Assembly: GCA_964638145.1 (NCBI GenBank)
Contig: CAZXAK010000019.1
Coordinates: 1,117-65,116, forward strand
Source: an uncultured Desulfobacterales bacterium
Lineage (GTDB): Bacteria; Desulfobacterota; Dissulfuribacteria; Dissulfuribacterales; QOAL01
Reading direction: 5' to 3'
DNA length: 64,000 nt
The position numbers were made by a program, and so were the translations under genes. Each line of letters opens with the position of its first letter. The stretch's first letter is position 1. Below the pieces are notes generated by a model, which was not told the DNA's origin, did no database searches, and saw nothing but the letters and a program-made list of their open reading frames with translations. Below, piece by piece: positions 7,570-53,795 of the stretch.

Positions 7570-7689
7570 TGTTAATGTGCACGGATCATGGTCCCAAGTT
7601 ACAACCAAATGCCAAAGTTGCCAATTTGGAGACTCAGACAGCAAAACACCGCGCACCAGGTGGTAAGTTACACCCAATTCAGGCTACAA

Positions 7690-14655: not shown

Positions 14656-16392
14656 ATGAAAACGGGAAAAACAGCACATCTCCACCTGCTACCTGCTCTA
14701 CTCGTGGTAATTACGTTTTTGGTAACCCCCCCATTTGCAACAGAGGCAGCGGCTGGAAATCGTTACCAGATTTCCAAGGCCGCTCCATACTCCTGGTATC
14801 TCCAGGGACTTATAAAGGAGATGAAGGGAGATCTGGCTGGAGCCTATCACTGTCTTGAAACTGCATCTGAACTTGACCCTGAGGCCATACCAGTGCTCAT
14901 GGAGCTTGCGCAGGTGGCTGCAAGGATAGGCAAGACGGAAGAGGCCGAGCAGTGGATCGAACAGGCACTGGTGATAGCACCCAAGAATATCCGTCTGAAG
15001 CTAATGCTGGGCCGCATATATGCATCTGCAGGCAATACGGCTGCTGCCATCGAGGTCCTGGACGACATCCTCAAGGACGACCCTGACAATGAGGAGGCGC
15101 TGTTTCTCATGGGCTCCCTTTACGCCCAGTCCCAGAAATTCCAGAAGGCCATTCCAACGCTTGAGAAGGCAGCCAGCCAGAAGGGGACACGCTCCTTTAT
15201 GGCGCACTACTACCTTGGCAAGATATATCAGGCAAAAGGGGAACAGGACAAGGCCCTTGAGGAATTTTCAAAGGCCGCCGCTGCCAACCCGAGATTCACG
15301 CCAGTATTTGTGGATCTTGCTGAGATATACGAACAGAGGCATGACACGGAAAACGCCTTGAGGATGTGGCAAAGGGTGCTGCAAAACGACCCAGGAAACT
15401 CCAGAGCAGCCATAAGGACCATTGAACTACTGATAAAGACAGGCCAGATAGACCAGGCTTCCACCCTGCTTGACAGACTCAACATGACCAAGGCCGACCT
15501 TACTGCCCTGCGTTTCAAGGTAGCGCTCATCTACATGCAGAACAACAAACCGGACATGGCCCTTGACATCCTGCTTCCCCTGTCAGAAAAACATCCTGAT
15601 GACAGCCGCATTCTGTTCTATACCGCCCTTGCCCAGGAGGAAAACGGCGAGATCGACCAGGCCATAAAGACACTCAAGGCCATAAAGGGCAATGATATGA
15701 TAGGGACTGAGGCTACGGTACGCATCGCCTTTCTGTTGAGCAAGGAGGACAGGAACTGGGAAGCGGTCACCTTCCTGAAAAAACGCCTTGAGGAAAGACC
15801 GGGAAATCCGCAGATACTGCTTGCACTCTCAAGGATATACGACCAGACGGGTCAGACGTCCACAGCCATTACACTGCTCGAAGATTCAGTCAAAAAGGGC
15901 GTGGCCAACAAGGAAATCTACATGCAGCTTGCCATGCTCTGTGAAAAACTCCATGAGATTGACAAGGCACTGGGATGGGCACAGAAGGCGCTGGAGATTG
16001 ACAATGAGTATGTCCCGGCCCTGAACTTCATTGGCTATACCTGGGCAGAACAGGGGAAAAACCTCAAAAAGGCCGAGGAGATGATAAAAAAGGCCCTGTC
16101 CCATCAGAAAGAGGACGGGTATATCATAGACAGCCTTGGCTGGGTTTACTATGCCCAGGGCAGGTACAGAGAGGCGGTACAGGAGTTGGAAAAGGCGCAC
16201 AAACTCGTCCCAAACGACCCCACCATTGCCGAACACCTCGGAGACGCCCTGATAAAAAGCCAGAAATACTACAAGGCACTGAAGATATACAGAAAGGCAG
16301 TGGAGTTGGAGAAGGACAAGAGAAAAAGACACAGGCTGCAGAAAAAGGTCAGGATGGCCATTGACATGATCTCTGAAATGGTTGACCAGTAA
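14656..16392 (+). CDS. TPR repeat protein with signal peptide
   Basis: 578 aa. N-terminal signal/TM segment, then repeated 34-residue TPR-like units (A..Y..AL..DP.N...). Confidence 0.8.
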   Translation: MKTGKTAHLHLLPALLVVITFLVTPPFATEAAAGNRYQISKAAPYSWYLQGLIKEMKGDLAGAYHCLETASELDPEAIPVLMELAQVAARIGKTEEAEQWIEQALVIAPKNIRLKLMLGRIYASAGNTAAAIEVLDDILKDDPDNEEALFLMGSLYAQSQKFQKAIPTLEKAASQKGTRSFMAHYYLGKIYQAKGEQDKALEEFSKAAAANPRFTPVFVDLAEIYEQRHDTENALRMWQRVLQNDPGNSRAAIRTIELLIKTGQIDQASTLLDRLNMTKADLTALRFKVALIYMQNNKPDMALDILLPLSEKHPDDSRILFYTALAQEENGEIDQAIKTLKAIKGNDMIGTEATVRIAFLLSKEDRNWEAVTFLKKRLEERPGNPQILLALSRIYDQTGQTSTAITLLEDSVKKGVANKEIYMQLAMLCEKLHEIDKALGWAQKALEIDNEYVPALNFIGYTWAEQGKNLKKAEEMIKKALSHQKEDGYIIDSLGWVYYAQGRYREAVQELEKAHKLVPNDPTIAEHLGDALIKSQKYYKALKIYRKAVELEKDKRKRHRLQKKVRMAIDMISEMVDQ

Positions 16393-16395
16393 CCC

Positions 16396-16457
16396 TGTAC
16401 CACAGGCACCTGAAATGCATAAACAATTGGCAAGGGCTGATGGTGTTTTTTCTCATG
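16396..16457. repeat. MITE family 1, half copy (copy D)
   Basis: cacctgaaatgcataaacaattggcaagggctgatggtgttttttctcatg matches the left arm of 28800-28964. It fills the convergent gap between the TPR gene and atpA and contains the atpA stop codon (16453-16455). Confidence 0.7.
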
Positions 16458-18303
16458 CCCCCCTTATGAGCCGGTCCATCTCCTCATCAATCCTCTTGCC
16501 CAACGCCATGAACGGTGCAGAATCATCACCCTTTTCCCTGAATTTTATACGATGGATATCAACCAGCACGTCTGTCTCCATGGCCCGGAACAGTGGTATA
16601 CGGGCGTGCACAACATCCTCAAGTCTCTCAATAAAGTGCATGATCAGATCAAGGAGCAGGTACTGTTTCTCAGGGCTGGCATATGTATCAACAGGGTCGA
16701 ATGCGCTTTGCTGCAAAAAATCCTCTTTTAGCAGCCTTGCCGCATATATGATCCGTTTCTGATCGTCCGGCAGGGCCTCCTCACCAAGAAGCTTTACGAT
16801 GTTCTGCAACCTTGCATCCTCCTGCAATATGGCCATGGCCCTGTCACGCAGCTCACTCCACCTGTCTCCCACCCTCTGCTCCCACCACGCCCTGACGTCT
16901 GTGGCATAACCTGAATAGCTCTGCAGATAATTTATGGCCGGAAAGTAACGTGCGCTGGCAAGTTCTTTGTCAAGCGCCCAAAAACACTCCACAAAACGTT
17001 TGGTGTGCATGGTGACTGGTTCGGAAAAATCTCCTCCTGGCGGAGAAACGGCACCAATGAGGGTAACTGAACCCATCTTGCCGCCAAGGGTACGGACCTG
17101 GCCTGCCCGCTCGTAGAATGCGGCAAGGCGGCTTGCGAGATAGGCAGGAAAGCCCTCCTCTGCAGGCATCTCCTCGAGCCTTCCTGATATCTCCCTGAGG
17201 GCCTCAGCCCACCTCGAGGTGGAATCTGCCATAAGGGCTATATCATACCCCATATCCCGGTAATACTCAGCGATTGTAATGCCTGTATAGATGCTGGCCT
17301 CACGCGCTGCCACAGGCATGTCAGAGGTGTTGGCAATAAGTATGGTACGCTCTATGAGCGGACGGCCTGTCCTGGGATCCACAAGCTGGGGCAGATCAAC
17401 CAGCACGCCTGTCATTTCATTTCCACGCTCTCCGCAACCTATGTATACGATGATATCTGCATCAGTCCATTTGGTGAGCTGATGCTGCGTGACCGTCTTT
17501 CCTGTACCAAAACCGCCAGGAATGGCTGCTGTGCCCCCCCTTGCAAGCGGGAAAAATGTATCGATCACCCGCTGTCCGGTTACAAGGGGTTCTGATGGCA
17601 CCAACCTTTCAGCAGATGGACGCACCTTTCGCACCGGCCACCTCTGACATAGCGTTACCTCCTGTCTCCGGCCTGAATCGGTGAGCACCACGGCAATGAC
17701 ATCCTCAAGTGTGTAGGTCCCCTCTGGCACCACGCTTTCAATGATACCGGAGAGGTGTGGCGGGACAAGTATACGGTGAGCCACGCTCTGGGTCTCAGGC
17801 ACCACTCCAAGACAGGTGCCAGGACTTACACTATCCCCCTGTTGGACCTCAGGTCTGAACTCCCATACCCTGTCTTTGGACAGGGAGGCACCGGTCCTGC
17901 CGCGATGGATAAAATCTCCCCACTGCTCCCTGAGCATAGTGAGAGGACGCTGAATCCCGTCAAAGATACCTCCCATGAGTCCGGGCCCAAGCTCAACGTA
18001 AAGAGGCAGCCCCTGGCCTGCGACCCTGTCTCCAGGCCTTATACCTGTGGTATCTTCATAGACCTGTATGGTGGCACTGTCGGCCTCAAGGCTGATAACC
18101 TCACCTACGAGCCGCTGGTGGCCCACCTCTACCAGTTCGTTCATGGAGAAAAGGGCTGCAGGCCCTGCCTTTACTACTGGCCCGCTCACCATTTTGACAA
18201 AGGCACACTCATCATGCCTGCGGGTTGACACAAGCCCTGACTGCTCAATCTGCATCCGATCCTGTGGTGTCATGTACCGTATACCGTATGCATAGGTATC
18301 CAT
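16453..18303 (-). CDS. atpA: A/V-type ATP synthase catalytic subunit A
   Basis: 616 aa. Walker [10 protein letters not shown]. Conserved SGPVVKA N-terminal barrel and the [12 protein letters not shown] region. The exact start is uncertain because there are several upstream Met codons. Confidence 0.9.
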
Positions 18304-18438
18304 CCATAAAATGGCCCCTTTGCCCCATGGCCTGGCTGCTCGTTAAAGAAAAATTCATGCAGGCCCATTACCCACTGTTCTTTCACCTCTTTGCACCTTG
18401 TCATGGAACAAAATTCCCTGTTGCCTCATGTACACAAA

Positions 18439-19047
18439 TCATAAAAAATGTTCTGACAAAAGCTCCATCAACAGAGGCTCTGCACTGTTCAGCAAGGTCT
18501 CAAAGGAACAGTCCACCATCTGCCTCATATCCTCACTGAACACACGACAGCCTCCACTCATGGAGGCCGGCTTGTCAGCAAGCCTGACCTTCCTGCCTGT
18601 CTCAGAGGCAATGGAGGCCAGCACCCCGCTATCCATAACCCCCATATCCTGGGAATTTACCTGAACTATACAGGTATCTGACTGCAACTGCCGGATGCCG
18701 CCTGCGGCAAGGGATATCAGAAGCCCCTTATACCCTGGTTCACTACGTATGGACCGGAGCCTGCGTACAGCACTCTCCTTCAGGCTGGAAAGTATCCGCT
18801 TTTTCTCTTTGAGCACAAGCTGCCTTGCCCTCAACTCTGCCGCGTCAGTAATACGCCTCGCCTCTACCGCAGCCTCCTGTCTCTCCCTGTCAATACGCGC
18901 GTGCAGCCTGGAGTTTACCTCACTGCGCACCTTTTCTATCTGTTCATCTGCCCTGGCCCTGGCCTTTTCCAGTATGCCCTCCACCTCCTTGCGGGCTGCG
19001 TCTTCAATGGCAGTGCATAACAGTGCTATCTGGTCAGGAATGGGCAT
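18439..19047 (-). CDS. atpE: A/V-type ATP synthase subunit E
   Basis: 202 aa. Long charged N-terminal helix plus a C-terminal globular part (SGGCRVFSEDMRQMVDCSFETLL). Position is within the ATPase operon. Confidence 0.7.
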   Translation of the reverse strand: MPIPDQIALLCTAIEDAARKEVEGILEKARARADEQIEKVRSEVNSRLHARIDRERQEAAVEARRITDAAELRARQLVLKEKKRILSSLKESAVRRLRSIRSEPGYKGLLISLAAGGIRQLQSDTCIVQVNSQDMGVMDSGVLASIASETGRKVRLADKPASMSGGCRVFSEDMRQMVDCSFETLLNSAEPLLMELLSEHFL

Positions 19048-19069
19048 GATCCTATCTCCTCAGGCTGTC

Positions 19070-19372
19070 TCATGATCTCATAAGTGAAACCATCATCTCG
19101 CTGACAGAGGCCCGCTTCTGCACAGGCCCCTTGGTATCAGGTATCTCAATCACCAGCGGATGCTTTGTGACATAAATCACCTGGTCGATCCGGTCCCGGA
19201 TCTCCTGGGCTATGCGCTGAGTTATTAGCACAAGCCCTGTATCACTGTCACTGCTTGCCTTCTCAAAGGCCCTGGCCGCCTCATCCGCACCCTGCACCGG
19301 CACTGTACTGAAACCCGCAAGGGAAAAGGCAAGACAGGTCTCCGGATCTGCTATAACCGTAATGTGCGCCAC
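19070..19372 (-). CDS. atpF: A/V-type ATP synthase subunit F
   Basis: 100 aa. ITVIADPETCLAFSLAGF ... LVLITQRIA ... PLVIEIP pattern typical of subunit F. Confidence 0.75.
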   Translation of the reverse strand: MAHITVIADPETCLAFSLAGFSTVPVQGADEAARAFEKASSDSDTGLVLITQRIAQEIRDRIDQVIYVTKHPLVIEIPDTKGPVQKRASVSEMMVSLMRS

Positions 19373-19381
19373 AGGCCCTGT

Positions 19382-19786
19382 TCAAATCTTGCCAAGGATC
19401 ATGATGGCAATTATGAGACCATAAATCGCTATACCCTCGGCAAGCCCCATAAAGATCAGGGCGCGTCCGGCCATCTCAGGCCTTTCGCTAAGGGCACCCA
19501 TTGCAGCAGACCCCACCATGGCAACGGCTATCCCTGCTGCAAGGGACGATGCACCTACTGCCACGGCAGCCCCCATGTAACCCCACTTCGCCGCCTCTGC
19601 AGATACAGGCATGGTTGCTGCCCTCTGGGCCAGTACCACTGCCGGGGCAAAAAGGACACAGAAATTGGATACGAGCATAAAAATAAATTTCCAGTTTGGA
19701 TTTGGTCCATGCGGACCGTTTCCCATATTCATATTAAAGACTGATCTGCGAGCCTTGCCACATGAAGGACTATTCCTTGAAGTCAT
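19382..19786 (-). CDS. atpK: A/V-type ATP synthase proteolipid subunit K (c)
   Basis: ATG 19786 is the first start that does not overlap atpI. AAGGAG lies about 12 nt upstream. Gly/Ala-rich hairpin with the essential carboxylate in GLAEGIAIYGL. Confidence 0.7.
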   Translation of the reverse strand: MTSRNSPSCGKARRSVFNMNMGNGPHGPNPNWKFIFMLVSNFCVLFAPAVVLAQRAATMPVSAEAAKWGYMGAAVAVGASSLAAGIAVAMVGSAAMGALSERPEMAGRALIFMGLAEGIAIYGLIIAIMILGKI

Positions 19787-19808
19787 GGTCTCTCTCTGCT
19801 CCTTTGAT

Positions 19809-21845
19809 TCAGTGTGATCCAGCATGGTGTACCCCTGATGCAAACGGCTTGAATGCCTCTCCGCCTCCCCTGAAAAACTTGCTGAAAAACTCATAATACT
19901 CAAGTCTTACGGTCTGGATGGATACTACGAGGCCCTCAAGCCCCACGATTATCAGATTGCCTGCTACTATGGTAAGAAAATAGAGCAGCCCACTGCCGTG
20001 GACCTGGCGCACCATATCTGCCAAGGTGAACACTGCCACAAATAGCCCTGCGTGGGCCAGGGCAAAGGCAGCCACCCGGACAAAGGATACGGTATTCCCT
20101 GCATAACGCAGCAGATCATCAGCCACCTCAATAACAGATTCCAGCAGACTCACCCCTGTACCCTTCTGCACGGCATCCGGAAGATATCCTCCTGTCTTTC
20201 TGAGGATAAAGAGACGCACCGGTTTCTGAAGGACCATTATGGCCACGAGGACAGCCGCTGTCCACTTGGCGATGAGTATCTCTTCAGGAGACAGCTCTCC
20301 ATTGAGCAGCCAACGTACCCCAAGCCCTATCCCCAACCAGTAGAACAGTGCGCCGGCAAGCCCGGATGCAGAAAGAAGCTCTGCATATCGCCTCATGCGC
20401 ATTACATTTATGATGTTGAATATCAGCCCTGCACTTATCATGAACACCCCGACTCCGGCAGCCATCTTCATGAAATAATCAATGCTGTCCATGGGATGTA
20501 TCCACATGGCAGGAATGAGGTCTTCCATGCCAAACACACTGCCATAAAGCATGCCAAACAGCATGGAAGATACACCGCACTCCATGAGTATTATGCCGTA
20601 ATCCATGAAACGAAACAGCTTTCTGAAGATGTACCAGCCTGTAAGGCACAACAGTGCCCCATGTCCCACATCCCCAAACATCATGCCAAATAGCAGGATA
20701 AAGGTAATTGCGAAGAAGGCAGTAGGTTCCACCTCATGATAGGATGGAGTGCCGTACATGGTTACCAAGCGCTCAAACGGCCTGATCAGCAGGGGATTGT
20801 TAAAGAGTATGGGAAGATTCACTATACCGGAACGCACCTCGCGTATATCATCCGGATCAGCCATGTCCACAATGGCCCTGTCAGAGGTAATCTCAAGGAT
20901 TCGGGTCCTGAGTGTTTCAAAGAGGGAGAGCGGGATCCAGCCGGATATGAGATAGGTCTGATGTATCTGACCAAACTTGGCTGCCGCCCTTACAAGGGAT
21001 ATGGCAAGCTCTGCCTGATCTCGCATCTCCCTGAGTACCGGGCCATACTCTTCGGACATCTGCCGCATGGTCTTCTGCAATGTGGCAAGACGCTTTTCAA
21101 GCCCGGTCAGCTCCTCTGTGACATGATCAAGGAACTCTGTAACCGTACCGTGCACCTGTTCCGGCAGATCAATCGGATCCCAAAGGGCACTCTTCAATGC
21201 CCGCATGAGCACATCCTCATCCTCACGCAGAGAAAAGGCCACCAAGATAACACGCCTGTCCTTCTTGTTTACAGCCACAAGGGCGTGATGAATATCTGCG
21301 AGGCTTGCCTCAAGCCGTTCCATATTGTCACGGGGAACAAGGCCTGCATGCCAACACACGTATCTCAGGCCTGAAAGTCGGTCAAAGTTGATGTGGGCCG
21401 GTTCCATCAGGGAGAGCCTGTCAACAAGGAATCTGTGTCTGTCAATCTCCTGCCTTATACTTTCAATCTGTTCCAACAGGGGAGACACCCGTGCCGACAC
21501 CTCTCCTATCCTCTCCTCCAGGATAAACACATCCCTGTCAATACGAAGGCCGGCCACATCGTGTACAGGCGTTTGGGTAACTGAGTGTGCAGACCGACCT
21601 GACGATTGATTCAAGGTATCAGGCAGCACGGCAAGCAGACGATTGGCCTGTCTGAGAATGGATTGGTAGCGGCCCAGCAGGTCACTGTCCACACTGGCCC
21701 TGTAACCCAGACGCCCCATGTGGGTCTCCTGCAGATTTATTAGATGGAGCATACGCATCTGGCCAAGTACCTGCAACACAGCAGGCACATCTGCCTCAGG
21801 CACCTGTATGGTCACCCTGGCAAGCCTAACCGGTCTGAACATCAC
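19809..21845 (-). CDS. atpI: A/V-type ATP synthase subunit I (a)
   Basis: 678 aa. Soluble N-terminal half and a polytopic C-terminal half with RLEYYEFFSKF near the C-terminus. Confidence 0.85.
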   Translation of the reverse strand: MMFRPVRLARVTIQVPEADVPAVLQVLGQMRMLHLINLQETHMGRLGYRASVDSDLLGRYQSILRQANRLLAVLPDTLNQSSGRSAHSVTQTPVHDVAGLRIDRDVFILEERIGEVSARVSPLLEQIESIRQEIDRHRFLVDRLSLMEPAHINFDRLSGLRYVCWHAGLVPRDNMERLEASLADIHHALVAVNKKDRRVILVAFSLREDEDVLMRALKSALWDPIDLPEQVHGTVTEFLDHVTEELTGLEKRLATLQKTMRQMSEEYGPVLREMRDQAELAISLVRAAAKFGQIHQTYLISGWIPLSLFETLRTRILEITSDRAIVDMADPDDIREVRSGIVNLPILFNNPLLIRPFERLVTMYGTPSYHEVEPTAFFAITFILLFGMMFGDVGHGALLCLTGWYIFRKLFRFMDYGIILMECGVSSMLFGMLYGSVFGMEDLIPAMWIHPMDSIDYFMKMAAGVGVFMISAGLIFNIINVMRMRRYAELLSASGLAGALFYWLGIGLGVRWLLNGELSPEEILIAKWTAAVLVAIMVLQKPVRLFILRKTGGYLPDAVQKGTGVSLLESVIEVADDLLRYAGNTVSFVRVAAFALAHAGLFVAVFTLADMVRQVHGSGLLYFLTIVAGNLIIVGLEGLVVSIQTVRLEYYEFFSKFFRGGGEAFKPFASGVHHAGSH

Positions 21846-21998
21846 CGTGCCCCCCTGACACTATGCCTGATCCCTTCACATCCGATCTCCTCACGCCTGC
21901 GTAGCCTCAGCCTTGTATCTGTAGCACCCTGGAAGCAGCGACATTTCAGACAGTTGTGCAACAATACCCGCAAGGAATCCTGTAAACAGTTACATGGG

Positions 21999-22039
21999 CC
22001 TTGTCAGTTGCTCCTGTATTTCAGGTCTCCTGCATCATG
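21999..22039. repeat. MITE family 1 end-fragment overlapping the atpC 3' end
   Basis: ccttgtcagttgctcctgtatttcaggtctcctgcatcatg versus ctctgccaattgcttctgtatttcaggtgtcgtgtagttatg (copy 48841-48912). Roughly three quarters identical by eye. Confidence 0.45.
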
Positions 22040-23074
22040 TTTTGACTCCACAAGGCTGACGAGCCGTTCGATCTCAGCCTCCTCTTCCAAAAGGCACGCC
22101 ACCTCTATACCAAGGTTAAACGGTGGACCTGCAAATGCCCTGCGCACCCGATCAGCAAGCAACTGCCTGAAATACCCTGTAACCTCCTCCAGGGAAGTAG
22201 CATCCTGAATGTGCTGTCGCACCCGTGCTGGAAGGCGGCTTATAAACTCCTCTCTGTCCTTTGCCTGGGACAAAGGGCCTATCTGCTTCAGTTTGATGAG
22301 GCTACCGCCTGCAAGCGAATAATTCACCACCTGTTCAGGTTGAAGGCCATAACTCCATCTCAATCTTATTATCCATGATATGTTGACAAAATCAATAAAT
22401 GGTCCCACCACCATATGCACCGCCCTGTAATCACCACGGGACAGGGCTGCCACAGAACGCCTGAGCCAATGAAAACATGCATGATCCACCGCGATCTCAA
22501 GGGGAAACAGGATACCCTGGGCCTGAAACTGGGGATATGCGAACCTAAGTGCCTGGGCAAAGACGGAACGGCCAAGCCTGGCCTCTACCTGTGATATATC
22601 ATCAAGTGCCCAGAGGTCACTCCATGGTATGCGGCTTAACCCGCATTGGGGAAAGAGCAGATGTTCCACCTCCTCACGGGTACGCATGGAAAAGAGCGCC
22701 CTGAGGAGAATCTTGAGGTTTTGCCCATCAAATCGAGAGTAGAGGGAAAGGATGAGCTCCTTGCGTCTCCTGCTGCCCAGTGCCCGGAAAATCTTGGCAT
22801 AATCCTCCATTAGACGGGTATACAATACCCTTTCCAATCTCTTTTTGAATAAACCTCCATATTCATTCTTGGCCAGGGAGGTCTGCTGGGAATCGTAAAC
22901 CGAACTGGTATGGGAAGCGATAAAAGGGGAGTATGAGGTGGTGGAAAGATACTGGATCACCCTTCCGAGATCCGGCATGTTCGCAAGGATGTGCCAGTCT
23001 TCAGGGGTGAGCCGCCAGGCACGTATTGCCCGTGCCTTGGCATTGGCATATGAGTAGATGAACGGCCCCAGCAT
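22004..23074 (-). CDS. atpC: A/V-type ATP synthase subunit C (d)
   Basis: 356 aa. N-terminal FIYSYANAKARAIRAWRL is typical of the subunit C/d family. Confidence 0.8.
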   Translation of the reverse strand: MLGPFIYSYANAKARAIRAWRLTPEDWHILANMPDLGRVIQYLSTTSYSPFIASHTSSVYDSQQTSLAKNEYGGLFKKRLERVLYTRLMEDYAKIFRALGSRRRKELILSLYSRFDGQNLKILLRALFSMRTREEVEHLLFPQCGLSRIPWSDLWALDDISQVEARLGRSVFAQALRFAYPQFQAQGILFPLEIAVDHACFHWLRRSVAALSRGDYRAVHMVVGPFIDFVNISWIIRLRWSYGLQPEQVVNYSLAGGSLIKLKQIGPLSQAKDREEFISRLPARVRQHIQDATSLEEVTGYFRQLLADRVRRAFAGPPFNLGIEVACLLEEEAEIERLVSLVESKHDAGDLKYRSN

Positions 23075-24158: not shown

Positions 24159-24432
24159 CCTAAATTGAATGTTTTAAATTACATGAAGTTTTGTTTTGTC
24201 CTTAATTACAATAGATTATTGCTATTTTATAGGGAATTGTCTGCCACCCAACGGGTTTGGCCTAACAGTTTTTGCTGACCACATAATTTGAAACGACTGC
24301 GGGGTTCCCAGTTTCGCATGATCTGCTGCGCCGGAGTCTTCGCTTGCCTGTAGGGCACTTGAAGTACAAACAGTACGTCTGCGTATCTTCCGCCTTGCAT
24401 CTCATGCAAACTTGGAAATCACCCAATTCAGG
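24159..24432. mobile_element. MITE-like element, family 2 (full copy G2, inverted relative to G1)
   Basis: 274 bp. Collinear with the reverse complement of 7315-7569. Ends cctaaattgaatg / cacccaattcagg. Flanked by tttca on both sides (about 24153-24157 and 24433-24437). Confidence 0.7.
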
Positions 24433-28981: not shown

Positions 28982-29027
28982 CCTGAATCGAGCGTTTCCA
29001 ATCATGTGAGATTTTATCTGTAATTAC
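28982..29027. repeat. MITE family 2 end-fragment
   Basis: cctgaatcgagcgtttccaatcatgtgagattttatctgtaattac parallels the family 2 end cctgaattgagcgtttcaaatcatgtgaaatattgttttgtctttaattac. It contains the stop codon of the 29024-30337 gene. Confidence 0.55.
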
Positions 29028-36099: not shown

Positions 36100-37959
36100 T
36101 TAAATAATCAGCCTTACCCCTCCAAGCTCCTCTATACGATACGGGAACCTGTCTCCTGGAGAACCGATAAACATAAAGTTTACAGGTATGCCCCACTTCC
36201 TGGATAGCTTCTGGATGAGTTCAGGCCCGAACCTTCCCTTGATCTTTACAAACTCGATATCAATCTCAGGATACTCCCTGTCCAGGAACTCAAGGTCTTT
36301 CTCCAGCTTCTCCAGAAGCTCCTTGTCTTCCTTCCCGCTACCAGTTACATGCACAATCTTCAAACGCCTGGTATGCTCGTTGTTCTTGATGTAAAGGAGT
36401 ACCCTGTTGAGGTTTGCGAGATTGTCTCCACGGGTGAAGAATACAAACTCCTGGGACTGAATGGCATCAATGGTGGCAAGTATCTTCTGATCAATACGCT
36501 GTACCATCTTCATGATTGGCACATAGAGCAACTCTATAAAGTGGAGCAGGGCATCAAGCAGTGCCACCCTGTTGAGCATTATGCCTGTGACAAAGATGGC
36601 AGGAATAAAATATTCAAGAAAAACTATTATATTGGCAGGCGCACCCGGGGCAGGCTCCCTGACGATGTTACCAACAAGCGCCAACATGACGGCCACCAGG
36701 GCAACAAAGACACTCCACCACCCTGCCCGTTCCGGACGCGGAAGCTTTGCCCGTTTGATCTTCAACAGTATGTTCCCCAGGGCAAAGAGTGCCATCACGG
36801 AGAGAAAGGATATGGTATAGACCCCTGCCAGCACCTCCACCTCTCCCTCGGTGATGAACAGTATGGAGACGCACATCAGGAAGAACATAACGATTATCCG
36901 GTAGGAGCTGCCCCTTGAATTCTTCTTGAGCAGGAACTGGGGTAGTATCCGGTCCAGAGTGATTCGTTCAATGAGTCCGCTCACGCCCACATAGGAGGTC
37001 AGCACCGCTCCACTAAGAACAAGGGCGGCATCCACTGAGACCATACCTGCGAGCCACCTCCCGCCGGTGATCTCTCCCATATAGGAGAGCAGATCTGCCT
37101 CGTGATTTGCCACTTCAGGAAGCGGTATTATGGCAAGGGCAAGAAATGCCATTAGTGGATTGAATATACTCACCACCACCCACATGTTCCTCAGGGTCTT
37201 TGGAAACACGCCTGGCTGCTGCTCCTCAACGAAGTTGGCAGAGCTTTCAAAACCGGATATCCCAAGCATTGCGGCGGAAAAGCCCCAGAACACCGCCATC
37301 TGCACAGACCCGTGTTTTACAGGAAAGCTGTTGTTCTGGAAAAACACCCCCAGGCCATGATGAAAGAGATAGAATATCACCGTGCCTGAGAGCATGAACA
37401 GAGAGACGATATGAAAGGTAAATATTACCACTGCCACTGCTGCCGACTCGCCAATACCCATTATGGTAAGGGCCATGAAGCATGAAAGAAGGACCACCGT
37501 AGCTGAGATCACAGGCAGTGACGGTATCATGTTGTGCAAATAGTGCATGGCCTCTGAGGCGGATATAACAGCCGTTGCCATATAAGACAGCAGGGTGAGG
37601 GTGGCTGCAAGAGAGGCCATGGACTTGCTCGTAGTATTCAGCAGTGCGTTGTATGCCCCACCGTTCAGGGGCAGGGCACCTACCACCTCGCCGTATATCT
37701 TCCTGAAGAGATAAAGTACAAAGGCCACGATGAGCAGCGCCACCCACGCGTACTGGCCTGCAGAGATAATGGACAGGGCCGATACGTACAGGACCGACGA
37801 GGTAATGTCATTGCCGCAGATTGCAGTAGCGGGAATCTCGGACAGTTTCTTCTTTTTTACAGGCCGGATCGCTGACCTGGCCCGTGATGGCCTCTTACTC
37901 CCCTTGCCCGCGGCAGCCTTGCCTGCTCCCTTGTCCCTTGCCCTCTCCGACTCAGCCAT
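36100..37959 (-). CDS. APC-superfamily permease with C-terminal cytoplasmic domain
   Basis: 619 aa. K/R-rich N-terminal tail, about 12 TM helices and the motif GNDITSSVLYVSAL, plus a soluble C-terminal region of about 170 aa. Start is 3 nt after the yedF stop. Confidence 0.7.
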   Translation of the reverse strand: MAESERARDKGAGKAAAGKGSKRPSRARSAIRPVKKKKLSEIPATAICGNDITSSVLYVSALSIISAGQYAWVALLIVAFVLYLFRKIYGEVVGALPLNGGAYNALLNTTSKSMASLAATLTLLSYMATAVISASEAMHYLHNMIPSLPVISATVVLLSCFMALTIMGIGESAAVAVVIFTFHIVSLFMLSGTVIFYLFHHGLGVFFQNNSFPVKHGSVQMAVFWGFSAAMLGISGFESSANFVEEQQPGVFPKTLRNMWVVVSIFNPLMAFLALAIIPLPEVANHEADLLSYMGEITGGRWLAGMVSVDAALVLSGAVLTSYVGVSGLIERITLDRILPQFLLKKNSRGSSYRIIVMFFLMCVSILFITEGEVEVLAGVYTISFLSVMALFALGNILLKIKRAKLPRPERAGWWSVFVALVAVMLALVGNIVREPAPGAPANIIVFLEYFIPAIFVTGIMLNRVALLDALLHFIELLYVPIMKMVQRIDQKILATIDAIQSQEFVFFTRGDNLANLNRVLLYIKNNEHTRRLKIVHVTGSGKEDKELLEKLEKDLEFLDREYPEIDIEFVKIKGRFGPELIQKLSRKWGIPVNFMFIGSPGDRFPYRIEELGGVRLII

Positions 37960-37962
37960 GAT

Positions 37963-38556
37963 CTATATCCTGATCACCTTTGTTGCCAGGTGCATGGAAG
38001 TTACTATGTCCAGCATGTTGGTGGTCTCCCCCACACCCTTCTGTTGCAAAAGATCATAAAATTCCAGACAGGTACCACACACAAGTATTGAAACCCCCCG
38101 TTGCTCCAGTGCCTTCAGGGGATCAAGCGCATCTGCCCCCTCTACGGACAGCCTTACGCCGCTGTTTACAAGCACTATGCGCCACAGATCACTGCCAAGC
38201 TCATCAAGTGTGCTGATGAAGTTGAGCATGAGGCGCTGGCCAAGCTCAGGATCTCCCTGGCCTATCGCATCTGAGGGGATGAATACCAGTATCTTCTCTG
38301 CCCTGCCCTCTTCCCTGCCCTGAGACAGGGCCACAGCACAGGCACATGGCACACCCTTCACAGAAAAACGGTCCTGGCCCAGGACAGAAACGCTCACTTC
38401 ATATCCCTGGCTTTCAAGAAACCTGGCTACATTCTGCCTCGCTGCCTCATTATCCACGATAATCTCCAGTGACTCGCCTGGCCTCTCGGCTATAATGTCC
38501 CGCGCATCAAGAACAGGTTTAGGACAGGCAAGCCCGGAACAGTCCTTGGTTATCAT
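37963..38556 (-). CDS. yedF: YedF-type selenium-metabolism protein (TusA-like plus DsrE-like domains)
   Basis: ATG 38556 (MITKDCSGLACPKPVL) forms an ATGA overlap with the U32 stop. The CPxP TusA motif is followed by a DsrE-like half (ILVFIPSDAIGQGD ... VCGTCLEF). Confidence 0.75.
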   Translation of the reverse strand: MITKDCSGLACPKPVLDARDIIAERPGESLEIIVDNEAARQNVARFLESQGYEVSVSVLGQDRFSVKGVPCACAVALSQGREEGRAEKILVFIPSDAIGQGDPELGQRLMLNFISTLDELGSDLWRIVLVNSGVRLSVEGADALDPLKALEQRGVSILVCGTCLEFYDLLQQKGVGETTNMLDIVTSMHLATKVIRI

Positions 38557-39791
38557 ACGGTATGAACCTTTCTTCTCCTTATCACTGCCCACTCCTCAAA
38601 ACGGAGACACGGGGCTGTTGACACGGTTACAATCTCGCCTCCAAGGGCCTGGTTCACCTCTCTGCCATCCTCACTCCTCACAGCAGTAACGGTAAACGGG
38701 ATCACATCAAGCCCCCTGTCCATGTACTCAAGCTGGTCTCCAGGCCTTAAAATGTGCCCTACCCTCACAGCAGGCTCCACACCTGCCCTCACCACCACTG
38801 CCGCAGGGGAGAATGTCTGATCCACACTGCCTCCACTGTAGAGCATATCGTCCCTTCCTGGCGCACTGTCAAAAAAATTTTCTGTGTACCCCCTTGAGCC
38901 CAAAATCTGCAACTCTTCCATAAAACGCTCAGGGATCACGGGCAATTCCTCCCCCCATCCGGCAGGATCACCCTTTGCAGACAGATAGTCCAGGGCTGCA
39001 CGATATGCACGCACCACCCCGGCCACATAGAATATACCCTTCATCCGCCCCTCTATCTTCAGGCTATGCACCCCTGCCTGCACCAGTTCAGGAAGCCGTC
39101 TCATCAGGCACAGATCACGGCTGTTGAAAATATAAACACCCCTGGCATCCTCTTCCACAGGGAAATACTCTCCAGGCCGTTTCTCCTCCTGCAGGGCATA
39201 ACGGTATCTGCACGGATGGGCACAGGCCCCCTTGTTGGCATCCCTGCCTGTGAGATAGAGACTCAGCATGCAGCGGCCCGAATATGATATGCACAGGGCA
39301 CCGTGCACAAACACCTCTGTGTCAATATCCGCATGCAGGGCTATCTCCCCTATCTCCTGTATGGACAGTTCCCGTGCCAGATTGACCCTGGATGCACCCA
39401 TATCCTTCCAGAAGAGCGCTGATTCCAGATTGGTGGTATTTGCCTGGGTAGAGACATGGATAGGCAGGCCGGGACATGTCCTGCGCGCAGTACGAAATAT
39501 CCCAGGGTCTGAAACTATTATTGCATCCACTCCGGTCCGGTTCAGAAAGGAAAGATAATCAGGAAGGCCCTTCAGATCTCTGTTATGCGCAAAGATATTA
39601 ACTGTAACATATACCTTTGCGCCCCGTTCATGGGCAAAACCAACGGCCTCCCGGATATCCTGTTCAGAAAAGTTTCCTGCCTGCGCCCTGAGACCAAACT
39701 CCCTCCCCCCGAAATATACGGCATCAGCGCCGTAGTGCACGGCAATCTTCAGCTTCTCCAGATTTCCTGCCGGTGCAAGAAGCTCAGTCAT
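38553..39791 (-). CDS. peptidase U32 family protein (YegQ/TrhP/RlhA-like)
   Basis: ATG 39791 (MTELLAPAGNLEKLKIAVHYGADAVYFGG) is the typical U32 N-terminus. It overlaps the ftsK stop by 8 nt. Confidence 0.85.
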   Translation of the reverse strand: MTELLAPAGNLEKLKIAVHYGADAVYFGGREFGLRAQAGNFSEQDIREAVGFAHERGAKVYVTVNIFAHNRDLKGLPDYLSFLNRTGVDAIIVSDPGIFRTARRTCPGLPIHVSTQANTTNLESALFWKDMGASRVNLARELSIQEIGEIALHADIDTEVFVHGALCISYSGRCMLSLYLTGRDANKGACAHPCRYRYALQEEKRPGEYFPVEEDARGVYIFNSRDLCLMRRLPELVQAGVHSLKIEGRMKGIFYVAGVVRAYRAALDYLSAKGDPAGWGEELPVIPERFMEELQILGSRGYTENFFDSAPGRDDMLYSGGSVDQTFSPAAVVVRAGVEPAVRVGHILRPGDQLEYMDRGLDVIPFTVTAVRSEDGREVNQALGGEIVTVSTAPCLRFEEWAVIRRRKVHTV

Positions 39792-42132
39792 CTTCGTACT
39801 TCCTTGCAATAACCTGCCTCCTGCCCATGGAGTCAGTGGGTGTAACAACACCGTCACGCTCCATCTGCTCGATCATGCGTGCCGCCCGGTTGTAGCCTAT
39901 ACGCATGCGCCGCTGCAGGCCAGAGATTGAGGCAAGACCTGTGGAAGTCACTATCTCGACCGCCTCGTCGTACTTCTCATCCTCAAACTCCGCGCTGCCC
40001 CCAGAGCCGCTGTCTCCTTCCCCAGGCACAGGCTCCGTGACCGTGGGATCATAATCGGGCTCACCCTGCGCCTTCAGGAACTCCACCACCTTCATTATCT
40101 CGGACTCGGAAACATATGCACCGTGAATGCGCTCAAGGGCAGATGATCCAGGGGGCAGAAACAGCATATCTCCCATGCCAAGTAGCCTTTCAGCACCCAT
40201 TACATCAAGTATGGTACGGGAATCCACCTTGGATGAGACCTTGAACGAAAGGCGGGCAGGAAAGTTTGCCTTGATGAGCCCTGTCAGCACATCAACAGAA
40301 GGTCTCTGGGTGGCTATGAGCAGATGTATCCCTGCGGCACGGGCCATCTGGGCAAGCCTTGCAATGGCTGCCTCCACCTCCTTTGAGGATACCATCATCA
40401 GGTCTGCAAGCTCGTCTATTATCACCAGGAGATAGGGCAGTTTTTCCTCTGCATTTGCGTTGTATCCGTCGAGGTTCCTGGCATGGGCCTCTTCCAGGAG
40501 CTGGTAGCGGCGTTCCATCTCCATGACCGCCCACTTGAGCGCACGGGTTGCCTCCTTTGGCTCGCTCACCACCGGATGTATCAGATGGGGAATGCCGTCA
40601 TAAAGTGACAGCTCTATCCTCTTGGGGTCCACCATGAGCATCCTCAGACGCTCAGGACCAAGGCGGTACAGGAGAGAGCATATCATGGCATTAAGCCCAA
40701 CACTCTTGCCCGTACCTGTGGCACCTGCTATGAGCAGGTGAGGCATCTTGGCAAGGTCTGTCACCACAGGCTGGCCCACGATATCATTGCCAAGGGCAAG
40801 GAGCAGCTTGCCACTGTTCTTCTGAAAGACATCACTTGCAAGTATCTCCTTGAGCCACACGCCCTGACGTACACTGTTGGCAAGCTCAATGCCAATGACA
40901 GCCTTGCCGGGAATAGGTGCAACTATGCGGACGCTGTGGGTCTTGAGGGCAAGGGCCAGGTCATCGGAGAGAGAGGCCACCTTGTTTATCTTGATACCAG
41001 GCGCAGGAGCAAACTCGTACATGGTGACCACAGGCCCTGGACATATCTCCACCACCTTGCCGGCCACACTGAAGTCACGAAGCTTCTGCTCCAGTATCCT
41101 GGCATTCTCAAGATAGACATCCCGGTCTATGGCAATCTCCTGGTCAGGCGGGTCCTTCAGGAAGGAAAGGGGCGGCAGTTTGTACTCACCTCTCAGGGGT
41201 TTGATCGCAAAACCCGACGACTCACCGCTGTCTGAGGCATCAGGAGCGCCTTCAGGTGCTGCAGACATGTCCTTCCCCCCCCTGCCCTGTTTACTGCTGT
41301 TTCTCACAGGCGCAGTGATCCTCGGGACATCATGGGTCTCAGCATGGTCGGATCCACCACCTGCCCCAGATTTGAAGTCAGCAATGGCAGGTCCATTCTT
41401 CCTCTTGGAACGATCTGTTTCAGGTTTGTCTCCCCGGCTTCCATCACGGCCGGTTGGGAAAAGGCCAAAGACAGAGACCATGGAACAGAACAGGCGGACA
41501 ACAGACCGCATGACACCAGGGGCGGCAATCAGCAGGCCTGAGAGCAGCATGACAGAGGAGATCAGAAGAGCACCTGCCACGCCAGTCCAGGAGACAAAAA
41601 AATCCGCAAGGAACCTGCCTGCAAGCCCTCCGGCCCCAAGTAGAAACCCCTGATGTATCCACCGCGATGCAAGGGTCAGCAGGGTAGAGAGCGCAAACAG
41701 TATCAGGCCCCAGCCTGTAACCGTCAGAAACCGGGGGACATGTCTCTCCCTGCAGGGAGACAGGATGCGCACTGCACCAAGTGCTGTCCAGAACACTGTT
41801 AGCCATGCAGGAAGCCCCACCATGTCCCGCAGAAAACCTGACAGATTGGCACCCACTGGCCCCATCCAGTTCTTAACCATACCTTCAGCATAGTGGCTCA
41901 GTGACGGGTCCTCAGGACAGTAAGTGGCAAGGGAGATGGCAAGGAAGATGGCAACTGCCCCAAGCCCAAGGGCTGCCAACTGCCTCATGGGATCGGGCCA
42001 ATGCCCCTCTCCATTGTGACTGCGGGCTCCAGTGGGGACAGATGAGGGGTCAGCCCGGCCGGAGCGTTTCTTTTTTCTATTCTTTTTTTCTGTCAACTTG
42101 GTGAGTATGTATTTATAGCCGAGATCCTGCAT
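39784..42132 (-). CDS. ftsK: DNA translocase FtsK
   Basis: 782 aa. N-terminal TM helices, a Pro/Gly/Ser linker, a motor domain with Walker A GATGTGKSV, and a C-terminal gamma winged-helix (ISGLQRRMRIGYNRAARMIEQME). Confidence 0.9.
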   Translation of the reverse strand: MQDLGYKYILTKLTEKKNRKKKRSGRADPSSVPTGARSHNGEGHWPDPMRQLAALGLGAVAIFLAISLATYCPEDPSLSHYAEGMVKNWMGPVGANLSGFLRDMVGLPAWLTVFWTALGAVRILSPCRERHVPRFLTVTGWGLILFALSTLLTLASRWIHQGFLLGAGGLAGRFLADFFVSWTGVAGALLISSVMLLSGLLIAAPGVMRSVVRLFCSMVSVFGLFPTGRDGSRGDKPETDRSKRKNGPAIADFKSGAGGGSDHAETHDVPRITAPVRNSSKQGRGGKDMSAAPEGAPDASDSGESSGFAIKPLRGEYKLPPLSFLKDPPDQEIAIDRDVYLENARILEQKLRDFSVAGKVVEICPGPVVTMYEFAPAPGIKINKVASLSDDLALALKTHSVRIVAPIPGKAVIGIELANSVRQGVWLKEILASDVFQKNSGKLLLALGNDIVGQPVVTDLAKMPHLLIAGATGTGKSVGLNAMICSLLYRLGPERLRMLMVDPKRIELSLYDGIPHLIHPVVSEPKEATRALKWAVMEMERRYQLLEEAHARNLDGYNANAEEKLPYLLVIIDELADLMMVSSKEVEAAIARLAQMARAAGIHLLIATQRPSVDVLTGLIKANFPARLSFKVSSKVDSRTILDVMGAERLLGMGDMLFLPPGSSALERIHGAYVSESEIMKVVEFLKAQGEPDYDPTVTEPVPGEGDSGSGGSAEFEDEKYDEAVEIVTSTGLASISGLQRRMRIGYNRAARMIEQMERDGVVTPTDSMGRRQVIARKYEDD

Positions 42133-43677: not shown

Positions 43678-44787
43678 ATGGATTTTTTCCCTGAATTCCA
43701 CACCAGTGAACCCTTCACCATAGGTGTTGAGGTCGAATTCCAACTCCTTGATCCCCACACCCTTGACCTGACGTCAAAGGCCCCTGAGATACTGGCCATG
43801 ACTGACAGGTACCATGGAGACAAGATCAAGAAGGAGTTCATCCAGTCCATGGTGGAGGTAACCACAGGCATATGCAGAGATTCCAGAGGGGTCTGCATGG
43901 ATATGGAGGCTTCTGTCAGGCTCCTGGAACAGACAGCCCTCAAGGCAGGTTGTTTGATCCATGCCGCCAGCCTTCACCCATTTGCTATGGCCTGCAAACA
44001 GACAGTAAGCGATGAGGAACGATACAGGGACATCTTAGAAGAGCTTCAGATAGTTGGCAGGAGGCTTATAACACAGGGGCTCCACGTACATGTGGGAATG
44101 ACAGACGGGGAGACAGCCATCAGGGTATTTGACCGCATGCGCTCCCTGCTTCCTCACTTTCTGGCACTCACCGCCTCTTCCCCCTTTTACCAGTCAGAGG
44201 ATACGGGCCTGTGCTCATACCGTTCCAAGCTCTTCGAGGCACTGCCGAGATCCGGCATGCCAGAGGCCCTTGGCTCATGGTCTGACTACTGTTCATTCGT
44301 GGACCTCCTCACCTCTGCCGGTGTCATCAAGACCACAAGGGACATATGGTGGGACGTGCGACCTCACCCGGAGCTTGGTACAGTAGAGATCAGGATATGT
44401 GACGTGCCATCCAAATTCAGGTACATAACGGCAATGGCTGCACTTATCCAGGCTGCCGCCATGTTCCTCAATGAAAGGGCTGATGACATTGCCATAGAGA
44501 ACCGAGCCATCATAAACAGCAACAAGTGGCAGGCAACACGTTACGGCCTTGAAGGCAGCTTCGTTGACCCGTTCACCCACACCAAGATACCGGCACCTGA
44601 TGCCATAAGGGAGCTTGTGGAGAGGCTCCAAGCATATCTCGATGTGTTCAACGCATCAGATCAGGCAGATACCATCGAAGAGATGCTGGAACGGGGGTGC
44701 AGCGCCAACAGACAGAGGCGCATATACCTTCAGACAGGCAGTTTCAAAGAGATAATTCGCAAGGAGAGAGACAAGTTCTGGACATGA
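43678..44787 (+). CDS. ybdK: carboxylate-amine ligase, GCS2/YbdK family
   Basis: 369 aa. N-terminal FTIGVEVEFQLLD and the internal HVHVGM motif typical of glutamate-cysteine ligase family 2. Confidence 0.8.
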   Translation: MDFFPEFHTSEPFTIGVEVEFQLLDPHTLDLTSKAPEILAMTDRYHGDKIKKEFIQSMVEVTTGICRDSRGVCMDMEASVRLLEQTALKAGCLIHAASLHPFAMACKQTVSDEERYRDILEELQIVGRRLITQGLHVHVGMTDGETAIRVFDRMRSLLPHFLALTASSPFYQSEDTGLCSYRSKLFEALPRSGMPEALGSWSDYCSFVDLLTSAGVIKTTRDIWWDVRPHPELGTVEIRICDVPSKFRYITAMAALIQAAAMFLNERADDIAIENRAIINSNKWQATRYGLEGSFVDPFTHTKIPAPDAIRELVERLQAYLDVFNASDQADTIEEMLERGCSANRQRRIYLQTGSFKEIIRKERDKFWT

Positions 44788-46328
44788 CATATCGCAACTC
44801 TGCTGCATCAGGACACCAGGCCGTGACTGATGCCGCAATGGAAATATTGGAAAGTGGTGGAAACGCATTTGATGCAATAGTGGCAGCAGGTTTTGCCAGT
44901 GCAGTATCCGAACCTGCGCTCAACAGCCTTGGGGGAGGAGGTTTTCTGCTGGCCCGAACAGCAGAGGGGGAGGAGATACTCTACGACTTCTTTGTGGACA
45001 CACCAGGCAAGGGTATCAGGGGCGACTTTCCGCGCGAGCCGCACTTCTTTCCGGTAACAGTAAACTTTCCCGGATCAGAGCAGGTATTCAACGTGGGCAT
45101 GGGTTCTGTTGCAGTGCCAGGCAACCTCATGGGGCTCATGTACATACATGAACGGCTCTGCACCATGCCGCTCGAGAAAATTCTCGACCCTGCAGTAAGA
45201 CTTGCGGAAAACGGTGTTAGGCTAAACCATCATCAGGGCTATTTTCTTGACCTGCTACGCCCCATAATGACCCTTACAGAGAGGAGCAGGGCCATCTTTG
45301 GGGACAACGACACCTACCTCAAGGCAGGTGATACGCTGCGCAACCCGGAACTTGCCGGATTCCTTAAAAAACTTCCTGAAACAGGAATAGAACCCTTCTA
45401 CTCAGGCAGGATAGCAGAGATGATAGCAGAGGAGATGAGGGAACAGCACGGCCTTCTCACTACTGAAGACCTTGCCTCATACCGTGTCATCGAAAGGCAA
45501 CCATTGGTTACCTCATACAGGGGAAGGAGAATAGTTACAAACTGTCCGCCCTCCCTTGGAGGCCCTCTCATTACCATTGCCATGACCCTTCTTGAGAAAC
45601 TGCACTTTCACAGGCCAGGATGGGGCTGTCCGGGACATGTTTCTGCCATATGCTCCTGCATGAAGGAGGTGGCCATGGCCAGGGAACAGGGCATGGACTC
45701 GCCGGACCGGATCAGGCCAGAGTGGTATGGGGAGACTGCAAAAAGGATAGGGTCCCTAATGGACCGGATATCAGCGGATCAACATCCCGTGTTCTCCAAG
45801 GGCACCACACACATGAGTGTGTGCGACAGGCATGGCAACGCTGCCTCAATGACCTGTTCCAATGGAGAGGGCTCCGGATATATTGCGCCAGGTACAGGTA
45901 TCATGCTAAACAACATGATGGGAGAGGATGACCTTCACCCGGAAGGATTCCACAGCTCTCCGCCAGGCATCAGGGTCTCTTCCATGATGTCTCCCTCTCT
46001 TGTAACAGGTCCGCATGGGGTGGAACTTGTGCTTGGAAGCGGGGGCAGCAAACGCATACGTACTGCCATCATGCAGGTCATGGTAAACTATATCGACTTT
46101 GGCATGTCCATAGGAGAAGCAGTCAATGCGCCGCGTATACACTGGGATTCATCCATGTTCCAGGTAGAACCAGGTTACCCTGACATTGCCATTGAGGCCA
46201 TAAAGGGTCTTGGCCCCCTGAATATATGGCAGGACATAGATGTCTATTTTGGCGGGGTACACGCAGTGGAACCAATGGGAGGGTGCGCAGGAGACCCCAG
46301 GCGGGGCGGAACGTGCGCCCAGGAATAA
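44784..46328 (+). CDS. ggt: gamma-glutamyltransferase
   Basis: ATG 44784 forms an ATGA overlap with the ybdK stop. Autoprocessing region GTTHMSV and the GSGGSKRI / MGGD-like motifs are present. Confidence 0.85.
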   Translation: MTYRNSAASGHQAVTDAAMEILESGGNAFDAIVAAGFASAVSEPALNSLGGGGFLLARTAEGEEILYDFFVDTPGKGIRGDFPREPHFFPVTVNFPGSEQVFNVGMGSVAVPGNLMGLMYIHERLCTMPLEKILDPAVRLAENGVRLNHHQGYFLDLLRPIMTLTERSRAIFGDNDTYLKAGDTLRNPELAGFLKKLPETGIEPFYSGRIAEMIAEEMREQHGLLTTEDLASYRVIERQPLVTSYRGRRIVTNCPPSLGGPLITIAMTLLEKLHFHRPGWGCPGHVSAICSCMKEVAMAREQGMDSPDRIRPEWYGETAKRIGSLMDRISADQHPVFSKGTTHMSVCDRHGNAASMTCSNGEGSGYIAPGTGIMLNNMMGEDDLHPEGFHSSPPGIRVSSMMSPSLVTGPHGVELVLGSGGSKRIRTAIMQVMVNYIDFGMSIGEAVNAPRIHWDSSMFQVEPGYPDIAIEAIKGLGPLNIWQDIDVYFGGVHAVEPMGGCAGDPRRGGTCAQE

Positions 46329-53352: not shown

Positions 53353-53408
53353 ATCTTTCTGACACTGGATTTTGAAGGCAAACCAACAACCAAGGAGGAA
53401 GCAAGACG

Positions 53409-53627
53409 ATGAAGGTCGAAATCACTTACTGCATGAAGTGAAACTATAAACCCAGGGCCTCCAGGCTGGGGGATCTGCTCAAGGAAAAATTTGGAGCTGA
53501 TGTGGAACTCATAGGTGGTTCCGGCGGGGTTTACGAGGTGGTTGTTGATGGAAAGACCATCTTTTCCAAGGCAAAGGCCGGCCGCTTTCCTGAAGATCAG
53601 GAGATACTTGACGCAATTTCAGGTTGA
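53409..53627 (+). CDS. SelW/Rdx-family selenoprotein, TGA(Sec) at 53439-53441
   Basis: AAGGAGG (53392-53398) lies 10 nt before the ATG. Translation: MKVEITYCMK-U-NYKPRASRLGDLLKEKFGADVELIGGSGGVYEVVVDGKTIFSKAKAGRFPEDQEILDAISG. The CxxU sits where the family carries its CxxC/CxxU redox motif. The frame stays open for 61 codons after the TGA. Confidence 0.75.
53451..53470 (+). promoter_or_regulatory. candidate bacterial SECIS hairpin
   Basis: cccag-ggcctccagg-ctggg starts 9 nt after the UGA, so the apical loop lies about 19-22 nt downstream. The stem is weak and this is a candidate only. Confidence 0.3.
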
Positions 53628-53654
53628 TTAAGCAGACCGCACTACACAACACGT

Positions 53655-53675
53655 AACCCCTCAGAGGGTTTTTGG
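53655..53675 (+). terminator. possible intrinsic terminator after the selenoprotein gene
   Basis: aacccct-cag-agggtt (one bulge) followed by tttgg. The stem is short. Confidence 0.4.
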
Positions 53676-53690
53676 TGGTATTAATTTATT

Positions 53691-53753
53691 CCTGAATTGA
53701 GCGTTTCAAATCATTTGGATCTCATGCAAACTTGGGGAATCGCTCAATTCAGG
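53691..53753. mobile_element. MITE family 2, internally deleted mini-copy (G3)
   Basis: 63-bp near-palindrome, cctgaattgagcgtttcaaatcat...atctcatgcaaacttggggaatcgctcaattcagg. It joins both ends of the 255-bp element. Confidence 0.7.
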
Positions 53754-53795
53754 AGTGCATAATCGGGAATATGAAAAAAGCTTCAGGATAGGCTC

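Follow-up and report, generated by a model that had tools for sequence, protein, structure and literature searches.

The 64,000-nucleotide stretch of DNA analysed here (hereafter the window) contains a gap of 443 nt between the end of a GFO/IDH/MocA-type oxidoreductase gene at 53352 and the end of dut, on the minus strand, at 53796. In a mechanical list of open reading frames, the sole entry within this gap is a 41-aa fragment with a GTG start (53502-53627). The question is whether the gap hides a selenoprotein gene, as proposed in the original prediction, which read a SelW/Rdx-family ORF through an in-frame TGA as selenocysteine (Sec). Our analysis indicates that 53409-53627 is very probably a functional gene, which encodes a 72-residue SelW-like (Rdx family) selenoprotein with a thioredoxin-like fold.

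The layout of the locus agreed with what had been described, including the size of the gap and the strong ribosome-binding site (Table 1). Translation from the ATG at 53409 gave MKVEITYCMK, a TGA, 61 sense codons and a terminal TGA, and the predicted end of the ORF, 53627, counts this stop codon in. In the relatives L001 and L002, the sequence (A)GGAGG lies ahead of the ATG at the identical 10-nt spacing.

Table 1 Features of the selW-like locus and of two genes adjoining yedF in the window
Feature	Position	Strand	Remarks
Ribosome-binding site AAGGAGG	53392..53398	+	10 nt before ATG 53409, seen in sequence
selW-like (Rdx family) CDS	53409..53627	+	72 codons including predicted Sec11, plus TGA stop 53625-53627
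Cys8 codon TGC, first residue of the CxxU redox motif	53430..53432	+	Invariant Cys in 86/86 loci; equals first Cys of CxxC in Atu0228 and MIEN1
In-frame TGA, predicted selenocysteine codon, residue 11	53439..53441	+	TGA in 86/86 loci; equals second Cys of CxxC in solved Rdx proteins
Predicted bacterial SECIS core: 6-bp stem CCUCCA/UGGGGG (53458-63 with 53467-72), apical loop GGC (53464-66)	53458..53472	+	22 nt past the UGA
Possible lower-stem extension: CAG 53453-55 with CUG 53475-77, across a 2x2 internal loop	53453..53477	+	In the window MFE structure, this genome only; tentative
APC-type permease-like ORF	36100-37959	-	619 aa; weak match to ethanolamine permease
U32-family peptidase-like gene	38553-39857	-	434 aa; yedF start overlaps the gene end

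To place the product in a family, we searched profiles with the 72-residue sequence, scoring Sec as Cys. Pfam Rdx (PF10262) matched over model positions 1-72 of 74 with 73.7 bits against a cutoff of 22.6, and TIGR02174 (CXXU_selWTH) matched over the full length with 64.5 bits, over its curated cutoff. The NCBIfam equivalog NF041051, 'SelT/SelW/SelH family (seleno)protein' (SelTWH_Campy), scored 95.7 bits against a cutoff of 88. The prediction had been staked on the similarity of the 61 codons past the TGA to Rdx/SelW proteins; searched alone, these codons matched Rdx with 49.8 bits (E 4e-13). A sequence search of the PDB returned 2fa8 (E 1.4e-8), 2ojl, 2oka, 2p0g, 3dex, 2obk, MIEN1 (2ljk) and mouse SelW (2npb). 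In these alignments, residue 11 of the window product falls on the second Cys of the CxxC motif of solved Rdx proteins, and the redox motif C8-M-K-U11 aligns to the CxxC of 2fa8 and 2ljk; the CxxU thus lies at the Rdx redox-motif position, where it had been expected. By sequence, the product of 53409-53627 is a member of the Rdx (SelW/SelT/SelH/Rdx12) family.

The fold was assessed with an AlphaFold2 model of the ortholog P0001, which is 90% identical, carries Trp at the Sec position, and stands in for the window's own protein. The model (pLDDT 88.5) has the topology β1(2-8)-α1(14-28)-β2-β3-β4-α2, which is the thioredoxin-like β1-α1-β2-β3-β4-α2 arrangement required of the Rdx family, and the C-x-x-U motif would therefore lie in the β1-α1 loop. 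When this model was compared with the PDB by Foldseek, SelW-related proteins ranked first (TM 0.87-0.93, rmsd 1.1-1.2 Å), followed by SelW and MIEN1, and then by thioredoxins.

A DNA-level scan with one genome per species yielded 275 relatives, and the best 80 of the 275, mainly Desulfobulbales/Desulfocapsaceae MAGs with a few from other phyla, were used further. Results showed that codon 11 is TGA, always as C-x-x-TGA, in all 86 loci examined, which span MAGs of Desulfobulbales, Zixibacteria, Acidobacteriota, Calditrichaceae and Hydrogenedentota. These loci are the closest relatives of the query, and their 100% TGA is silent on more distant, Cys-bearing family members; among them no Cys form at codon 11 was found. 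Intactness of the frame at orthologous loci was another point on which the prediction had been made to depend, and the ORF proved to be intact at all 86, free of frame-disrupting changes.

The two sides of the TGA have similar codon-position profiles, with entropies of 0.70/0.49/1.26 in the ten codons before it and 0.73/0.60/1.29 after it. Compared with L002 and L001, the ten upstream codons differ by 2 and 3 synonymous changes, respectively, and by no non-synonymous change, and the codons after the TGA by 12 synonymous vs 2 non-synonymous changes (L002) and 28 vs 9 (L001). For the whole gene the counts are 14 vs 2 (L002) and 31 vs 9 (L001). Judged by these patterns, the ten codons ahead of the TGA evolve as coding sequence, and the predominance of synonymous divergence points to purifying selection still at work before and after the TGA.

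We then examined the region downstream of the TGA for a bacterial SECIS element, in a gap-free alignment of 60 nt around the UGA comprising 82 distinct sequences. RNAalifold recovered a single hairpin, pairing columns 26-31 with 35-40, which correspond to 53458-63 and 53467-72 in the window. Standard pairs occupied 96.7% of the cells, vs 37-60% when the 3' partner was slid by 1-3 columns. Changes on both sides of a pair were seen in 48 cells, vs 16.6±3.3 in shuffles, and none of 500 shuffles matched the observed covariation score. Compensatory change occurred in four of the six stem pairs: column pair 27-39, for example, is C-G in 45 sequences and U-A in 30, and pair 28-38 occurs as U-G, U-A, G-C and C-G. 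Columns 27 and 39 are both third codon positions, the former the synonymous site of Ala17 and the latter the third base of codon 21, so selection at the protein level cannot explain their covariation. The hairpin is embedded in the conserved codons A-S-x-L-(G/E). Its first loop base is G in 82/82 sequences, and the loops among the orthologs read GUC, GUU, GGC, GGU, GAC, GUG or GCC. The possible lower-stem extension was not recovered as conserved by RNAalifold.

[quoted passage not shown] 2). The window element agrees with it in every respect, having a 3-nt loop beginning with GG, a 6-bp stem, a spacing of 22 nt and, for the 45 nt after the UGA, an MFE of -11.5 kcal/mol in a structure that includes the hairpin. 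An MFE of -7.5 kcal/mol or lower was also reached by 71 of 81 distinct orthologs. Folding of single sequences was uninformative: the segments 53439-53500 and 53425-53490 gave z-scores of -0.01 and +0.27, no better than shuffled sequence, and the MFE register was not the same in the two. Judging from this comparison, the predicted hairpin is visible as real solely across loci, and single-sequence energy says nothing about it. The original prediction had placed a weak hairpin at 53451-53470; this overlaps the conserved element, but its register was wrong, and the idea of a SECIS-compatible hairpin downstream of the UGA was borne out in the register given in Table 1. A search of 53380-53660 against Rfam, at gathering thresholds and at E <= 10, returned no relevant match and one spurious snoRNA; Rfam evidently has no model for this bacterial element, and the result has no bearing on SECIS function. 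A consensus scan also flagged a minus-strand terminator at the reverse complement of the SECIS region, which we rejected as an artefact of the same hairpin. Taken together, the family match, the TGA in 86/86 loci and the covarying SECIS support Sec as the likely reading of the TGA.

The window itself was searched for signs of Sec metabolism. As noted from the outset, a yedF gene is present (37963-38592, minus strand; TIGR03527, 203.9 bits vs a cutoff of 110). The yedF family tracks with selD across genomes and is not by itself proof of Sec decoding. NCBIfam annotation, and ARAGORN on the window and 60 loci, detected neither selA, selB or selD nor tRNA-Sec in the 64 kb of the window or at the fetched loci. 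The NCBIfam annotation extended to most long window ORFs, with 46-64 kb covered through Pfam calls on the syntenic L002. A look at TGA-bridged frames and at unannotated gaps revealed no further selenoprotein gene in the window; what the gaps contain is ordinary, namely genes for a U32 peptidase, a YbdK-like ligase and a LolA-like protein.

The missing sel genes and tRNA-Sec in the window leave room for a different account, in which the gene is a decaying relic in a lineage without Sec decoding and yields no more than a 10-residue peptide, ended by the TGA. Sister lineages are indeed known to have lost SelW-like genes (PMC1794560, Table 4). Such a relic is very unlikely here, as ORF, ribosome-binding site, TGA and SECIS are all intact, the divergence described above bears the mark of purifying selection, and yedF is retained. 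Since the gene and its SECIS are intact under purifying selection, and since Sec decoding and a SelW-like selenoprotein are known from the related Desulfotalea psychrophila (PMC1794560), we infer that the genome of the window decodes Sec as well, in keeping with a functional SelW-like selenoprotein gene.

Public gene calls at this locus and its orthologs were then compared with the DNA. The JGI call is a 41-aa fragment adjoining an identical oxidoreductase, and the NCBI call in a 96%-identical MAG is 50 aa. A word-indexed search of the protein database found seven relatives, two with W at position 11 and five shortened to 41-51 residues; in their DNA the TGA stands in frame. The warning that gene callers would miss or truncate the gene thus proved accurate. 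Such mis-calling leaves too few members of the family in protein databases, and much more was learned from the DNA-level scan. The fragments reported by gene callers are exactly the products expected if only a downstream piece were made, either the 41 aa from GTG 53502 or the 50-aa form of the relative, with the ten codons and the TGA as an untranslated leader. We consider this extremely unlikely: it is ATG 53409, and none of the internal starts, that has the strong ribosome-binding site before it; the ten codons upstream are conserved in the manner of coding sequence, with Cys8 invariant; and the Rdx match begins at model position 1, taking in β1 and the CxxC/U motif. Moreover, the fragment scores 73.5 bits with NF041051, under the cutoff of 88, and on the structural model a product lacking β1 and the active site would be unable to form the fold.

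The two relatives with W at the Sec position are ENA calls of orthologs. One call at L005 (73-342; P0003, 89 aa) has Trp for two TGAs, at the Sec codon and at the genuine stop, and so acquires a spurious 15-residue tail. No ordinary stop codon is used more often in the window than TGA, which closes 27 of 50 genes and also the selW-like gene itself. That the TGA is read as a standard amino acid, Trp by an alternative code or Cys/Trp by near-cognate read-through, as the W in the two ENA calls might suggest, is hardly credible, for long conserved genes of the window are intact under table 11 with TGA as a stop, the L005 caller also reads through the true terminal TGA, which marks the W as an artefact of a TGA=Trp code table, and a simple codon reassignment would have no need of a conserved covarying hairpin.

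With Sec as the preferred reading of the TGA, expression of the gene may be pictured as follows. Translation would start at ATG 53409, downstream of the strong ribosome-binding site, and the ribosome would reach the UGA at codon 11. The hairpin within the CDS, 22 nt on, with its 6-bp stem and 3-nt G-first loop, would work as a bacterial SECIS and bring in SelB·GTP·Sec-tRNA(Sec), so that selenocysteine would be inserted in place of termination. The second TGA, at codon 73, lacks such an element and would terminate translation. The Cys8-x-x-Sec11 product would then presumably cycle between selenolate/thiol and selenenylsulfide as a small thiol-dependent oxidoreductase.

The genes around selW differ among loci. 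In up to 48 of the 82 loci, among them most Desulfocapsaceae loci, selW is surrounded by genes that we take, from recognised motifs rather than a profile search, to encode RecN-like, HD-domain (dGTPase-like) and DtxR-like repressor proteins. A tRNA-Arg(TCG) lies ~1.5 kb upstream of selW in many Desulforhopalus-like loci. Loci with RecN/HD/DtxR genes or the tRNA-Arg include L009, L012, L014, L024, L030, L033, L036, L037, L039, L040, L044, L045, L047, L059, L061 and L063. The neighbours in the window, the GFO/IDH/MocA oxidoreductase and dut, differ from those of the relatives, so function cannot be read from the context.

The convergent spacer between selW and dut contains an 18-nt inverted repeat (53690-53707 / 53737-53754), whose arms are 94% complementary and 29 nt apart. 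Its 13-mer core, CCTGAATTGAGCG, has 7 matches in the window vs 1.8±1.7 expected, mostly intergenic, with further copies at 7315-7327(+), 7557-7569(-), 7671-7683(-), 24420-24432(-) and 28982-28994(+); some copies have ~30-75 nt of flanking similarity in common. The repeat is absent from the orthologous selW-dut spacer of the close relative L002, and it looks like a dispersed REP/MITE-like repeat.

Several other features of the window were recorded. yedF lies in an apparent three-gene operon on the minus strand (36100-39857), between a U32-family peptidase-like gene, presumably so on the basis of recognised motifs rather than a profile search, and an APC-type permease-like gene (Table 1). A gamma-glutamyltransferase gene at 44697-46328 (+) is an intact single ORF of 543 aa (TIGR00066, 373 bits); in L002, a 96%-related NCBI MAG, it is broken into several short G_glu_transpept ORFs (1213-2755), which reflect either a pseudogene or assembly frameshifts. 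A V/A-type ATPase operon lies at 16453-23074 (-), with subunits A, E, F, I and C-like, in an organism that resembles Desulfobulbales. A TPR protein of 578 aa at 14656-16392 (+) matched the NCBIfam model 'magnetosome protein MamA' with 196.5 bits, under the cutoff of 200, and many other TPR models; the MamA match is probably generic TPR similarity.

The value of these results lies in annotation. In every public call found (JGI, NCBI, ENA, Logan), the product is either shortened to 41-50 residues or wrongly given a Trp, so that the active site is lost from protein databases and the selenoproteomes of sulfate-reducing lineages are under-counted. The 6-bp-stem, 3-nt G-first SECIS could become a new RNA family and a marker for mis-called selenoprotein genes, and the 82-sequence alignment a possible seed for a covariance model that rescues such genes automatically. 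We also consider, tentatively and with more doubt than conviction, that this SelW-like clade may depend strictly on Sec and that one family-specific minimal SECIS may have been carried with the gene across phyla, as suggested by the lack of a Cys form in the 86 closest loci of several phyla. Nothing here is biologically new in kind, as descriptions of SelW-like selenoproteins in bacteria go back to 2004-2006 and NCBI keeps an equivalog model for them. With such selenoproteins known for so long from bacteria, the related Desulfotalea among them, our result is an annotation fix and not a discovery.

Among known elements, the SECIS of E. coli fdhF, whose sequence we verified in fdhF of 5419 of 5426 E. 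coli genomes, resembles the predicted window hairpin at its apex. Both are CDS hairpins just 3' of the UGA, with a small apical loop of G then G/U closed by an A-U pair, and their apex sequences compare as GCA-GGUC-UGC (fdhF) and CCA-G(U/G)(C/U)-UGG (window family). The window loop has 3 nt vs 4 in fdhF; its first G, counted from the U of the UGA, is nucleotide 26 vs 23, one codon further; and its conserved core is without a bulged U, unlike that of fdhF. The eukaryotic SECIS is of another kind than the in-frame hairpin that SelB reads in bacteria: a kink-turn element of the 3' UTR, recognised by SBP2/eEFSec (PMC1088965).

At the protein level, the Rdx proteins Atu0228 (2fa8) and those of P. 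fluorescens (2obk), B. parapertussis (2ojl) and V. cholerae (2p0g) share with the modelled product the fold (TM 0.87-0.93) and the position of the redox motif, but have CxxC in place of CxxU, ~100 aa with extra termini and 23-31% identity, and need no SECIS. Mouse SelW (2npb) and MIEN1 (2ljk) likewise have the Rdx fold, with CxxU (SelW) or CxxC (MIEN1) in the β1-α1 loop (TM 0.71-0.73), at ~25% identity. The score of 95.7 bits with NF041051 is modestly over its cutoff of 88, which is consistent with a model of a Campylobacter-type clade, as judged solely by what the model is called, and with an organism of Desulfobulbales type as the source of the query. Among representative genomes, the closest are 67-70% identical to the window SelW in protein sequence, although a 96%-identical NCBI MAG (GCA_054039495.1) exists; it seems, then, that the representative genome collection lacks the window lineage.

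The best match among known systems is the prokaryotic SelW-like family itself, which was established as a selenoprotein family in surveys of the Sargasso Sea and of bacterial genomes by Zhang, Gladyshev and colleagues and in which Cys forms are rare or absent in organisms that decode Sec (PMC1088965, PMC1794560). Desulfotalea psychrophila and Geobacter sulfurreducens both have a documented SelW-like selenoprotein (PMC1794560), and the nearest loci found for the window gene come from the order of Desulfotalea. The family and the window gene have in common a length of ~70-80 aa, the Rdx fold, an N-terminal CxxU, a Sec encoded by UGA and a bacterial SECIS just downstream in the CDS, the last two as predicted for the window gene. 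They differ in nothing substantive, and the window gene is a further ortholog, from a lineage in which the public calls are shortened.
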